Assembly: GCA_964016885.1 (NCBI GenBank)
Contig: OZ024764.1
Location: 10,974,001-11,038,000, forward strand
Reading direction: 5' to 3'
DNA from: Eledone cirrhosa
Lineage: Eukaryota
Length of the DNA: 64,000 nucleotides
How positions within the stretch are numbered: position 1 is the stretch's first letter; every line of letters starts with the position of its first letter. The notes below the pieces were generated by a model, which saw only the letters and a program-made list of their open reading frames with translations, was not told the origin of the DNA and made no database searches. A program made the translations under genes and the position numbers. Below, one piece after another: positions 1,632-62,870 of the stretch.

Positions 1632-1952
1632 TCTGCCAGATTAGATTAGATTAGATGTCTATATATATATATTTTTAATGTGGTGTACCCTTCGTGGTCC
1701 CGACTCTTTTCCTATATATGTTATTCCTGGTTCAATCGGGGGTAACCACAGTAAGTAAGGTACTCAATACATAGCAGAGTATAAATGTTTTAATATAGAA
1801 AAGCTTCTACAGGACTAGAACTGTTTAATTCGTGAGAAATCATCAGGAAGCTCATTGTTGATTTCTCACGAATGAAACAGTTCTAGTCCTGTAGAAGCTT
1901 TTCTATATTAAAACTATATATATAGACATCTAATCTAATCTAATTTGGCAGA
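1632..1952. repeat. Nested inverted repeats (outer 1632-1670/1916-1952, inner 1787-1842/1859-1914) containing degenerate hammerhead motifs; Penelope pLTR-like remnant
   Basis: Arms are direct reverse complements; the - strand reads AGCTTC-CTGATGA...ACAG-ttctagtc-CTGT-A-GAAGCT with GAAA mutated to TAAA. Confidence 0.75.
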
Positions 1953-2929
1953 TTATATATATATATATTAATATAATATAATATAGAAATGGCTTCTACA
2001 AGACTAGAACTGTTTCATTTGGAAGAAATCATCAGGATTGTGGACTGTATCCCTGTAATGTAGGCATATGCGGATATATATATATGGTACAAATTATATA
2101 TATATATATATGGTACAATTATATATATATAGATGGTACAATTATATACATATATATACGGTAAAAATTATATATATACGATACAAATTATATATATATA
2201 CATATATATACGGTACAAATTATATCTATACATATATGGTACAAATTAGTTTGTTTTAAATTAAAACAAACTAACTAATTAACAAATGAGACATAAATGA
2301 TAAAGGGATTACACGTCCCACCCCAAACCTATCCTATTTATATAACATAAGGGATTTCTAGTAATGTACTTTTTAGTCATATATAATATTTTTTCATGTA
2401 GAAACAAGATTAATTGTCGCAGGAATGTTACCATTTTAAACTGGCCACACCCGGTCATAATTCTCTCACCTCTTTCTGATCAAACAGGCCACTCATACTT
2501 ATGTTAAGGTATTGTTCTCAGACTAATATCAAAATCTTGTAGATTGGATATTATGTGAGATAATTATTTACTGCGAAAATATAACATATATAGAGTAATG
2601 TAAATGTTAAAGGGTTAAAATAATATTTCACAGGAGATAGATTAGCAAAATTTAAAAAGCAGGGTTGGGGATGGTAAAAATCTGAAAAATTAACAAGTGA
2701 AAACAAGGCAAAACGAAAAATAATTTTTTAAAGGGGAAACCTTAAAAAATTATTTTTTGAAAATAAAAATACATACGAAAAACATAGAACTCCAGGGTTT
2801 CCACCCATCGAGATGGACTTTGGCAGTTTCGACTCCTACTAATTGCTGATGCAATGTATGTCTGGGTTAAACTATGTATTTTAATGTTGAATCTTGTTTA
2901 AAAAATATAATTATCCATTAAAGCTTATA

Positions 2930-2949
2930 ATGTTTCTCTTTTATTTCAG
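2930..2949 (+). other. Conserved 3' splice acceptor of the terminal ZNF exon (also AG at 10121-10122, 18890-18891, 30161-30162)
   Basis: Polypyrimidine + TTTCAG at the left edge of the homology block shared by ZNF-2 to ZNF-5. Confidence 0.7.
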
Positions 2950-3054
2950 AACATCAGATGACATTGGCATTGAAGTATATTTTTACCTTGGATACATCAT
3001 CAATATTTATCATCTTTTAAAGACTAGAAGAAGTTTTTATACAGAGCAGATATA

Positions 3055-3409
3055 CCCTATTTCCCGGCGCCGAAGACGTTTCGTCCTTGAGGGTGGACCC
3101 TAATTTTGACAACCAAAAATTTGAAATAAAATAATTGTTTCTACTATTGGCACAAGGCCAGTAATTCACCAGTACATTACTGGTACTTTATTTTATCGAC
3201 CCCCGTAAGGATGAACAGCAAAGTTAACCTCGGCTGGATTTGAACTCAGAATGGAAAGGGCCGTAACTCTATGCGTCAAAGCATGGCGTCCGACCCTCTA
3301 CCGAGACTGCCAATAAAATAATAAACAACCTTCGGCCTCCAAGACGCATGGTAGACTTTTTAGACTTATTTTAGGAAAAAAGTAGCTTCTTTGACGCCGG
3401 GAAATGCGG
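3055..3409. mobile_element. Tc1/mariner-type (Tc2/pogo-like ends) MITE with TA duplication, carrying a nested SINE, in the ZNF-2 5'UTR
   Basis: TIRs CCCTATTTCCCGGCGCCGAAGA / TCTTTGACGCCGGGAAATGCGG flanked by TA; empty site AGATATAACCCTG in ZNF-4 (~19005) and ZNF-5 (~30260). Confidence 0.85.
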
Positions 3410-3658
3410 TAACCCTGTTTATATAAATCTGTGGTAGAATAACTGAAATATTTCCTCTGACTGAGTTTATTAGCAAGAATTCTCTACTTCACTGTTTGGA
3501 ATGTGTACAAGATGATTTTATATTTAAACTAAACTTGGATTACAAAGGTGCAACATCTTCAGATATCAACAAAGATCACAGTAGTGGAAGGAATATTTGT
3601 TAAGAATAATATATAAAAAAATAAAACATTGGTATATTTTGTCGAGAGAAGAAGCATT

Positions 3659-60758: not shown

Positions 60759-60859
60759 TATATATATATGGCATAACAAGTTATCATTATAGGTTAGAGT
60801 TAGAGGTTGTGAGTACTCTGTATTGTGGATAGTTTTAACGTATGGCGTTGTTTGACTCA

Positions 60860-61140
60860 ACAAGATGTTTCCATAGTTAGGTAGCGAGTTCGAGAATTCC
60901 TATGCTTGTTATACTTGGAGTAATAATTGTGAAAGATTGAAGAATAACATGGTCAGTTGTACAACAAGGGGCTTTATTTCAAGTATTAACAATTGTTTCA
61001 TTAATCAGGTGAGAGTAAAGGCTGCTGATCACTCAAAGTTGTGTCACTCGACCACAAATACAGTGCGTCACTCTGATCAAATCCTAAGAATACTAAAGAA
61101 TTCACATATGGCAATGGTATATATAGAGATACAGCATAGA
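60860..61140 (+). mobile_element. Penelope-like fragment, inverted relative to 62283-62495
   Basis: The two ORF-track translations are near-identical (RGFISSINNCFI...ILKNSHMAM). Confidence 0.6.
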
Positions 61141-61861
61141 AACAAAACAATAACATCAATAATAAAATATAATGATAAATAGAGTTTCTACTTTTGGCAC
61201 ACCACTGGTACTTTATTTTATCGACCTCGTAAGGATGAAAGGCAAAGTTAACCTCGGTGGATTTGAACTCAGAATGTAAAGGGCCATAACTATGCTGAAA
61301 AACATGGTGTCTGACGCTCTACCGATACTGCCAAACCACGATAAATAGGTAAAGAAGTTGCAGATGTAAAAAGTTAAAAAATAAATAAATAAATAAAAAA
61401 TAAGTAAATGTATATAAGTACAGAATACGATAGTTGATAATAGTGATGGTGGTGAGTAAGTGTCGGTATAAGGATGTGGGGGTGGAGGTAGTACTAACAC
61501 GAAAAGCAATATTAGATACATACATACGTGTAGAGAATAAAAGGTAGTATCAAAAATGACATAAAAGAAAAAACAATAAATTAAAAATTAAGCGAGAGAT
61601 AGGATGAGATATAAGGACTAAGGATGGATGGAGAAGGGGAGTTTGATATGTGAGTGGGGTAAATATTTAGCCTGCTGATTATCTTATCTTAATTGGGTTG
61701 ATGTGGCTTCAGGGAGAGTGTGTGAGAGTGAAAGAAAGGTTAAGAGATTTATGATCTAGTGACCAGCTGGTCAGTTGACAGCTGATAACGGTGTGGTGGT
61801 ATGTATTCTGTACATTAACATCTGGGTGGTTCAGTTCGAATTTTGGGATTGCTGGGTCGAA

Positions 61862-62495
61862 TCATGCTGGTTTGAAATTTGTGAACTTGGTAGCTGCTTT
61901 GTGGCTACAGAAAATTGATCTTTCTATTTTGCTGTTAAGCAGCATCTTATCGTACTTTAAAATATGGAATAGCTCCATATTGCAAAGTCCGCAGTGGGAC
62001 ATTCCATTGTTGTAGGCCCTTGCTCCCGATAATTTTGACCAGCTAATCCCATATTCCTGGTTTGTGTTCTTAAACTGCCAGATTTTATTGGTCAGCGTTG
62101 TAGAGTTCTCTAGTCTATGGTTTTTCATGGAGTGTCTGTGAACATACCATCTTTTTTTTAACTCCCCAGCCGTGGAACCTATGTAGTGCCATGTTAAGTT
62201 GCCTGAATTTATAGTACACAGGTACATCGTACTTGAATCCAGGCATCTATTTTGTAGCGCGTACTTATCCGGTAGGTGGCAGTTACCTGTGTGCAGGTTC
62301 TATATATGCCATTGCCATATGTGAATTCTTTAGTATTCTGAGGATTTGATCAGAGGTAAACACTGTATTTGAGGTCGAGTGATGCAACTTCGAGTGATTA
62401 GCGGCTTTTAGACTCACCTGATCAATGAAACAATTGTTAATACTTGAAATAAAGCCCCTTGTACAGCCGACCATGTTATTCTTTAATCTTTCACT
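61862..62495 (-). mobile_element. Penelope-like element GIY-YIG endonuclease remnant
   Basis: NCHLPDKYALQNRCLDSSTMYLC...YIGST...KKRWYVH...NSTTLTNKIWQFK...CGLCNME...LLN...CSH. Confidence 0.85.
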
Positions 62496-62517
62496 ATATA
62501 TATATACATATATATAT

Positions 62518-62870
62518 AAAATAAAGTTAAATAAAAGTCAAATGATTAAAATTTAGCTTCGTTTATTACTGCTATATATATTTCAGTGACAGCCATCTTT
62601 GGCTGTGACCTCTTCAGGCAGTTTGAATTAGTATGGTATAGAAAAGTACATATGACTCCAGTTCCCCAGTGAATTAACAACCCAACAAGGAACTGGGCAT
62701 ATCAGAGTATTGACAATATCATACACCTAAACAACATATGTACTTGTCTATACCATACTAATTCAAACTGCCTGAAGAGATCACAGCCAAAGATGGCTGT
62801 CACTGAAATATATATAGCAGTAATAAACGAAGCTAAATTTTAATCATTTGATTTTTATTTAACTTTATTT
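62518..62870. ncRNA. Inverted repeat with two complete hammerhead motifs (62568-62622 -, 62767-62821 +)
   Basis: ACTGC-CTGAAGA-g(a/g)tc-ACAGCCA-aaga-TGGCTGT-cact-GAAAT-atat-ATA/GCAGT; same family as 55133 with a compensatory stem II change. Confidence 0.8.

Follow-up and report, generated by a model that had tools for sequence, protein, structure and literature searches.

The ribozyme motifs scattered through a 64,000-nucleotide stretch of Eledone cirrhosa DNA (the window) are very probably type-I hammerheads in the terminal repeats (pLTRs) of several Hydra-clade Penelope-like element (PLE) families. Most lie within (TA)n, in ends that are 5′-truncated and placed head to head. A single insertion likely gives rise to each such pair: the two strands of a cleaved TA tract would both prime reverse transcription, at two fixed sites of the element RNA. 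The class is already published, Octopus included, and is not a new ribozyme system. The window contains about 10 distinct hammerhead sequence groups; the copies from A, D and the 14570 site are 70–78% alike, and J and K about 80%. The features, by family letter, are as follows.

1722..1912, fold-back of family E: the arm at 1722-1846(-) is tailed and has TAAA in place of GAAA; the arm at 1856-1912(+) is short and without the 5′ core
1976..2037, minus strand, short arm of family E: the core is intact and another sequence replaces the 5′ strand of stem I; the insertion is a duplicate of that at 8069-8195
6523..6745, insertion of family A: an inverted tail at 6523-6590(-) is fused to a short arm at 6585-6745(+), which has a hammerhead at 6604-6696
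6802..7222, fold-back of family B: the short arm, 6802-6921(-), has lost stem I; in the tailed arm the hammerhead is at 7025-7095(+) and the tail at 7139-7220
7234..7437, fold-back of family P: cut within stem II, it retains just the 3′ half of what is likely a U3-A8 hammerhead
7577..7890, another fold-back of family P: hammerhead 3′ halves only
8069..8195, minus strand, tailed arm of family E: another sequence replaces the 5′ strand of stem I
9012..9172, minus strand, family C: CCGACGA core at 9126, with a GUC site and a stem I of 3 bp; by eye, stem II is similar to that of A/D
12060..12212, plus strand, family D: hammerhead 12071-12164; about 71% like A
12803..13000, family E fold-back: decayed cores, tail on the plus arm
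13776..13885, plus strand, short arm of family E that includes pLTR sequence upstream; its hammerhead is at 13815-13865
14217..14624, 3′ halves related to A in head-to-head orientation: 14217-14370(-) and 14549-14624(+), 5′ core absent
24554..24724, minus strand, family G: hammerhead 24720-24597, CCGAAGA core, long loop II
34536..34620, minus strand, family M end: CAGAAGA (U4A) core at 34615
34982..35492, family H fold-back: tailed arm with hammerhead 35153-35086(-); plus arm core at 35161, split by a SINE-like insertion, 35216-35441
42560-42706, minus strand, decayed family M copy
46480..46759, family I fold-back: two intact hammerheads, 46590-46525(-) and 46649-46714(+)
55020..55232, plus strand, family J: hammerhead 55133-55186; about 80% like K
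60768..61190, minus strand, 3′ pLTR of family N: hammerhead at 61094-60982, with CTTAGGA as its mutated core; 156-nt tail at 60925-60770
61862..62299, minus strand, family N GIY-YIG endonuclease (EN) remnant: 145 codons, 5′-truncated, with the CxxC..E..N..CxH end
62299..62497, plus strand, inverted short arm of family N: its long-loop hammerhead, 62332-62444, is intact and has a GUU site
62517..62965, fold-back of family K: short arm with hammerhead 62622-62568(-); tailed arm with hammerhead 62767-62821(+) and 90-nt tail 62873-62962

Judged by their sequences, the ORFs linked to these hammerheads are of Hydra-clade type. Section 11 of PMC8557442 gives RWK, DKT, CxCX5C and CxxC..E..N..CxH among the diagnostics of that clade. 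RWK is present in N and K, with RWI in B (locus L178), and DKT stands in place of DKG in N, K, B and P. The CxCX5C linker, and CxxC and CxH flanking E and N, were found in N, K, B, M, P and the EN linked to family E; in the one copy of family A shown, CNY replaces CNC. In 144/157 cases from seven families, a TA/CA/TG microsatellite comes within 18 nt after the tail end. That PLE hammerheads occur as inverted, 5′-truncated pairs in (TA)n, as the preliminary description held, is borne out.

In longer genomic copies, the hammerheads of N, K, A, B, M and P lie 0.5–1.8 kb downstream of their own GIY-YIG ORF. Among the loci read, which were the top-scoring matches rather than a random sample, the N hammerhead is sense-linked to EN at 26 of 30 EN loci (533–801 nt, window copy included), that of K at 13/25 (1.2–1.5 kb) and that of A at 9/20 (the query and one duplicated pair included). 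Few or indirect loci provide the links for B (3/15, plus tandem L178), M (two loci, 947–948 nt), P (one RT+EN locus) and E, which is in a PLE-compatible position at 7 of the 22 loci not used to pick the query; from these sequences, E is probably linked to its own GIY-YIG ORF as well. An EN fragment upstream of E in L217 was rejected as an unrelated insertion and that in L213 kept (both 0.8–1.2 kb upstream). RT is followed by EN in L111-L114, L173-L175, L177, L187, L189 and L337, all copies seen being partial or broken, and no intact full-length ORF was seen among the loci read. EN and RT were identified by motifs and homologues, the best named homologues being from Argonauta hians; Pfam scans of the EN and RT pieces returned no RT or GIY-YIG match.

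These links change the picture of non-autonomous, retrozyme-like elements drawn earlier, since N, K, A, B, M and P run upstream into their own RT/GIY-YIG ORFs and E probably does so. The expected link of each family to a PLE was obtained for these families, with E again graded probable, and not for G and H. The GIY-YIG remnant had implicitly been linked to the adjacent fold-back. It is not the parent of that K pair: it belongs to family N, has its own hammerheads at 62338(+) and 61088(-), and shares only 34% identity with the endonuclease of K itself.

The ORF-link search took in the families other than I, J, C and D, and showed no EN or ORF link for G or H in the top 20 matches of each (the H query is itself a fold-back). 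It is therefore possible, if doubtful, that G, H and perhaps I are non-autonomous, pLTR-only elements, made from a short RNA that begins just 5′ of stem I and mobilised in trans by Hydra-clade proteins. Nearly all G copies stop at the 5′ edge of stem I, with the shared sequence ending about 7–10 nt 5′ of the core in 21/23 rows (by eye), and the parts of PMC8557442 and 10.64898/2026.07.22.740005 available to us report non-autonomous pLTR elements. Family E cuts both ways: in 21/36 bystander copies the start falls within -11..+1 of the core and 36 nt beyond TATAAATA, yet E extends upstream of this hot spot and is probably EN-linked. K and B likewise combine hot spots (-122 to -124 in 12/35 K copies, -70 to -83 in 5/16 B copies) with ORFs, and the absence of links for G and H concerns top-20 matches only. 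G was also considered as the 5′ pLTR of an A element in L177, and rejected there, an inverted A tail and TA lying between.

At the 3′ ends the order is hammerhead, short end, a 60–160-nt tail and then TA, and ends are bimodal in K, N, B, A and E. The tail continues into the ORF start in partial tandems. Partial pLTR tandems, an inverted 5′ copy and a tail at one end are all present, as in PLEs. Fold-backs are overwhelmingly heterotypic, combining one short and one tailed arm that differ by exactly the tail (105/110 pairs; without tail-biased query loci, 59/63, with homotypic pairs at 4/63). Family I was left out of the 110-pair total, its window-derived tail being wrong; with that mis-set tail it first scored 6 SS and 3 LS, and 5 of the 6 SS rows inspected are tailed on one arm. 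Four tails folded no better than shuffles (z -1.6 to 0.1), and therefore we claim no tail structure. The short/tail asymmetry likely records how the elements insert.

A precedent is the PAc Poseidon element of Anolis, for which PMC11167929 describes, in vitro, that both strands are cleaved and extended, that a pair of RT start sites sets the tail, and that the hammerhead is dispensable. The two systems share two 3′ ends separated by a tail, an AT-rich target and, in tandems, a tail running into the ORF region. PAc Poseidon belongs to a different clade, however. In the present elements 60–160 nt separate the two sites, which both precede the ATG; the ends have short TA microhomology to the target, and beyond the distal site there is a shared motif. 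On this model, the element's GIY-YIG would nick both strands of (TA)n, of the two 3′ ends one would prime distally, at the tail site, and the other proximally, and the two truncated cDNAs would join at family-specific hot spots, often short palindromes. The hammerhead may process tandem transcripts weakly or with protein help, and would not be needed for insertion. Most window copies would be promoterless, dead insertions.

The shared motif, GCTCC..TTGAGC, follows the tail in three families; a relaxed pattern gave nothing more in the loci read. When three 8-mers of it were compared with the PMC8557442 supplement, in which line breaks may hide matches, only Hydra-1_Obim had something similar, before the ATG, and hence the motif is not shown to be clade-wide. 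Tentatively, and with less than even confidence, we propose that twin priming is obligate in Hydra-clade PLEs: an RT-EN dimer on this RNA element, conserved just 3′ of the tail, may prime the distal site on one strand and the proximal site on the other, so that every insertion would have one tailed and one short arm. The abundant 130–250-nt fold-backs would then be run-off cDNAs from the 5′ pLTR of the mRNA, and the ribozyme would be dispensable, as the U4A-core family with >22,000 copies suggests. In PMC8557442 the origin of inverted and tandem PLE structures and microsatellite targeting are given as open questions. This genome offers thousands of copies in many families, whose ends make sharp predictions: each family should have two start sites, one for each strand, together with a candidate cis-element. 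Many short 'palindromic' repeats in this genome, which resemble MITEs or microRNA hairpins, are PLE ends.

An inverted pair could instead arise from a single cDNA or antisense template that primes itself at a palindrome, with no need for two target primings. PMC3846280, as far as its accessible text goes, proposes self-priming on an antisense template for head-to-head repeats, and the junctions seen here do concentrate at short palindromes: CATATG for families K and B, hairpins for H and P. We consider this origin unlikely: it predicts arms with the same 3′ end, unless one is trimmed exactly to an internal site, against the exact tail difference in nearly all pairs. Moreover, certain inverted arms contain nothing but the tail, and others internal sequence.

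That the copies are tandem non-LTR retrozymes replicating via circular RNA we regard as very improbable. Type-I cores with a palindromic loop 3 would suit dimeric cleavage (PMC4209133, in part), and the non-LTR retrozymes of 10.64898/2026.07.22.740005, as far as described there, resemble these motifs in being PLE-related and having a type-I hammerhead. They are, however, tandem non-coding repeats, whereas here we see inverted truncated ends, mostly of coding elements. There are no head-to-tail arrays of hammerhead monomers in the window, and the loci read showed none that we noticed. The copies extend across the cleavage site and stop at the tail rather than at the cut, and the ORFs of N, K, A, B, M and P are at odds with a lack of coding capacity.

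Using a structural descriptor (CYGANGA..GAAA..NUH with stems III and I paired), we counted 11 type-I matches with a stem I of at least 4 bp on both strands of the 64-kb window, versus a mean of 0.35 and a maximum of 2 in 200 block-wise dinucleotide shuffles, and 9 versus 0.13 at 5 bp or more. The excess over shuffled AT-rich sequence is thus real. Chance matches in AT-rich, palindrome-rich DNA, favored by nothing beyond a base composition of 36% GC, have a negligible probability, being refuted by these shuffles, by 150 unique matches in 33 clusters versus 3–4 in shuffled sequence (1.02 Mb of hammerhead-biased loci), and by 3,963 exact family E matches in the genome versus 0 in the control.

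Window copies have the core CUGANGA/GAAA/NUH on three helices with stem I closed; departures are U4A in family M and U3-A8 in family P. Hammerheads earlier noted at 6604, 7025, 12071, 46525(-)/46649, 55133, 62568(-)/62767 and 35088(-) are intact by the descriptor, as is 24597(-), with a loop II of ~100 nt, when read by eye. Three others were only partly upheld: the motif at 13815 has 4 bp of stem I and then a mismatch, that at 9055(-) only 3 bp, and the core at 35157 is parted from its stem-I 3′ strand by the SINE-like insertion. The broken copies at 1800, 1990, 8150, 12820 and 14570 are as described; those at 1990 and 8150 represent one insertion, duplicated, because junction and flank are common to both. 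Overlooked were the intact core at 62338(+), CTTAGGA at 61088(-), CAGAAGA at 34615(-) and the U3-A8-type family, with its 3′ halves at 7234-7437 and 7577-7890. AATAAA follows the cut site in about half of the families (by eye), an observation that we do not weigh in DNA so rich in AT. MFE folding recovered stems I and II in several copies and not the whole hammerhead fold. An Rfam scan of the window had no hammerhead among the 150 of 258 matches listed, which were hairpin and microsatellite noise; RF00163 on the genome gave 18 over the cut-off among only 74 scored candidates, with 0 in the window.

Among published systems, again as covered by the available part of each source, the closest are the Hydra-clade PLEs of PMC8557442, whose supplement includes Hydra-1_Obim, an Octopus bimaculoides Hydra element with a hammerhead. 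Shared features are the C-terminal GIY-YIG, RWK, DKT, the CxCX5C linker, CxxC/CxH around E and N, a 3′ hammerhead, a (TA)n target and inverted 5′-truncated copies. The window hammerheads do not match the one listed for Hydra-1_Obim (by eye), however, and here we find at least ten families in a single window, 3′ UTRs of 0.5–1.8 kb, tails of 60–160 nt versus 30–40, loop II of up to ~100 nt, U4A and U3-A8 cores, and 56,295 first-look EN candidates in the genome (not a copy number). Like the minimal PLE hammerheads of Schistosoma and other metazoans (PMC4209133), those here are dispersed single motifs and opposite-strand pairs 100–700 bp apart, with many families per genome, a palindromic loop 3 and a U3-A8 variant; unlike there, stem III is longer or loop II branched in several of the present families. 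Our literature search, within open journals and outside bioRxiv supplements, found no count of short/tail pairing and no U4A PLE hammerhead. Short/tail pairing, the post-tail motif in three families and the 22,298-copy CAGAAGA-core family are apparently new in print.

The families, once described as unrelated, are so for RNA and not for proteins, which all belong to one clade. Compensatory stem changes between subfamilies were seen in N (5 and 7 of 45 copies), I (7/21) and B, each probably one subfamily event; K and M had none among the copies compared. Stem I pairs are broken in many copies of family E, and in family M stems are conserved no better than loops. With 22,298 exact copies in the genome and an altered catalytic core (CAGAAGA, U4A), family M is a natural test case for the need of PLE hammerheads to cleave at all.

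The hammerhead-like sites listed in the preliminary description were confirmed on inspection, some with caveats. A descriptor demanding the core together with stems III and I matched the window 11 times, compared to a mean of 0.35 and a maximum of 2 in 200 dinucleotide shuffles, so the density does exceed that of shuffled sequence. Relaxing the length of loop II and tolerating a single mismatch in the core gained three window motifs, 62338(+), 61088(-) and 34615(-), with counts, against 60 shuffles, of 6 versus 0.03 (strict) and 6 versus 0.57 (relaxed). In 1.02 Mb of fetched loci, a sample biased towards hammerheads, there were 150 unique matches in 33 clusters versus 3–4 per shuffle (two shuffles); three TTGAAAA singletons within the 150 may be chance. 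The exact pattern of family E (families are hammerhead sequence groups lettered from the window) has 3,963 copies in the 3.0-Gb source genome and 0 for the reversed control. The window motifs are real and largely of a known kind, new Hydra-clade families of Penelope-like elements (PLEs) visible as truncated ends. Some 20 more hammerhead types, absent from the window, turned up as bystanders, each on one or a few occasions (loci L001-L265).

Hammerheads were linked to reverse transcriptase (RT) and GIY-YIG endonuclease (EN) ORFs in top-scoring, hence non-random, loci. The walk took in families N, K, A, B, M, P, E, G and H; of the other families, J is similar to K and D to A. The truncated EN ORF at 61862-62299(-) gave 56,295 first-look genome candidates and 150 scored matches (identity 73–100%), and RT lies upstream of EN in its longer copies. 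Because a long-loop hammerhead like those at 61088 and 62338 trails EN by 533-801 nt, in sense orientation, in 26 of 30 EN loci fetched, this remnant belongs to a family N fold-back (a head-to-head pair of 5'-truncated ends) with its own hammerheads, and is not the parent of the adjoining pair. That family K pair is a separate insertion into the same TA tract. Upstream of K lies a distinct RT+EN (13/25 loci), whose EN is 34% identical to that of N. Family A is joined to an ORF in 9 of 20 loci, counting the query and one duplicated pair. The ORF links of B (3/15 loci, plus one tandem), M (EN, 2 loci) and P (RT+EN, the single locus L337) are thin, as is the indirect connection of E to its EN family, in which 7 of 22 loci, leaving out three used for picking that family, carry E either inverted, as the 5' arm, or in sense on the downstream side. 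The anticipated linking of each hammerhead family to a longer PLE held for N, K, A, B, M and P and indirectly for E; no such link appeared for G or H among 20 loci each. No intact ORF was seen among the copies examined.

The ORFs carry RWK (RWI in family B), DKT, a CxCX5C linker and CxxC..E..N..CxH, which section 11 of PMC8557442 states as diagnostic of the Hydra clade, a clade that has hammerheads and (TA)n targets too. Judged by these diagnostic motifs, the ORFs are Hydra-clade PLEs. The supplement of that paper includes Hydra-1_Obim of Octopus bimaculoides, an element that prefers (TA)n and bears a hammerhead. The RT/EN pieces went unrecognised by Pfam, and the best named protein matches come from Argonauta hians, which, with the zinc-finger arrays and microsatellites of the window, suggests an octopod host. 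PLEs of O. vulgaris are annotated in PMC13282606, with ribozymes unmentioned in the available portion, and 235 Hammerhead_1 matches are reported for giant squid (PMC6962438).

In each of families K, N, B, A and E, copies stop at one of two 3' positions, giving either a short end or, 60-160 nt beyond it, a tailed end. After de-duplication, 105 of 110 head-to-head pairs combine a short with a tailed arm (tail/tail 4, short/short 1; family I, its tail mis-set, is left out of this total), as do 59 of 63 once loci from tail-containing queries are removed. For family I, five of six 'short/short' rows were inspected, and all five bear a tail on one arm; all 14 displayed family H loci outside the window are heterotypic by eye. 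A microsatellite follows the tail end in 144 of 157 cases. Truncation points at the 5' side group family by family: -11 to +1 from the core in E (21/36 bystanders), -122 to -124 in K (12/35) and -70 to -83 in B (5/16), the latter two at a CATATG palindrome, and the 5' edge of stem I in G. The sequence TATAAATA lies 36 nt 5' of the family E core (window 13776-13821; L123-L147), a spacing that would suit a candidate start site at the E truncation hot spot.

In PLEs, one end may bear a tail, and copies that are both truncated and inverted are known (PMC8557442 and PMC3846280); PMC4209133 describes pairs of hammerheads on opposite strands at spacings of 100-700 bp, weak cleavage as dimers and a U3-A8 variant. 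In vitro, according to PMC11167929, both target strands are cut and extended, two internal RT starts coincide with tail ends, and the hammerhead is protein-assisted yet dispensable. The main rival explanation for the inverted pairs is self-priming at palindromes, which alone would not account for arms that differ by the tail and nothing else. We propose a single insertion in which each strand would prime once, at a start site of its own, and the truncated cDNAs would then be joined.

In partial tandems, the ORF start is reached by running on from the tail. Families K and N have in common AGCTCCCAC-N2-4-GGTTGAGC, 6-11 nt beyond the tail end and 45-60 nt ahead of the ATG (L307-L336), with 142 exact genome matches versus 0 for the control and RT downstream in 28 of 30 loci read. 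Family B has a variant, GCTCC-N7-TTTGAGC, at the same place (L178). This post-tail motif is a candidate RT-binding element. A similar stretch precedes the ATG of Hydra-1_Obim; other Hydra consensus sequences gave no match. The 5' motif of family N recurs at least 10 times on one strand of G000:C2:313353397-313686818, mostly ∼22 kb apart, in a tandem segmental array containing a PLE.

Family M has a hammerhead-like end with a CAGAAGA (U4A) core, in the window at 34536-34620(-) and 42560-42706(-). Genome-wide, CAGAAGA has 22,298 exact copies (0 in the reversed control) versus 762 for CYGAAGA. An opposite-strand CAG copy overlaps five of the first six canonical-looking M copies, indicating that these were made by the fold-back junction. 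The U4A change would be expected to impair hammerhead cleavage, and family M bears on the question of ribozyme function. Stem covariation across genomic copies, also expected at the outset, was confined to a few subfamily events, with none in K or M. The open-access papers searched described neither the near-obligate asymmetry of the arms nor the post-tail motif nor a high-copy U4A family; together these make PLE insertion more testable. In fold-backs of family P, a U3-A8 (TTGATAA) hammerhead with a GUC site is represented by its 3' half, the complete motif occurring in 2 of 85 distinct contexts. Besides loci L052 and L337, they lie in the window at:

7234-7437, family P
7577-7890, family P
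16493-16561, family P

Other repeats in the window, which also holds numerous TA/TG microsatellites, are:

2-384, 3820-5463, 10948-12037, 19327-19934, 30691-31227: C2H2 zinc-finger arrays of an 84-nt repeat, duplicated units
14641-14788: near-perfect long inverted repeat in TA, no hammerhead noticed
6400-6505, 35216-35441, 52452-52558, 60414-60519, 61190-61340: abundant SINE-like repeats of at least two kinds
26586-28588, 31699-32694, 36318-38217, 39554-40167, 43819-45385, 55238-56948, 56999-60230, 63304-63999: homogeneous minisatellite arrays

Family E copies 1990 and 8150 were duplicated along with zinc-finger units. The inverted repeat, which matches MIR9563 only below cut-off, may be a further PLE end or a MITE. 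One SINE-like repeat has a weak tRNA match (52452-52507); one splits an H hammerhead, and another lies in the N 3' UTR. The minisatellites have periods of 19-101 nt and matches of mostly 93–97%, and those with a 48-nt period look like a section of a dispersed repeat found at 46230-46480.
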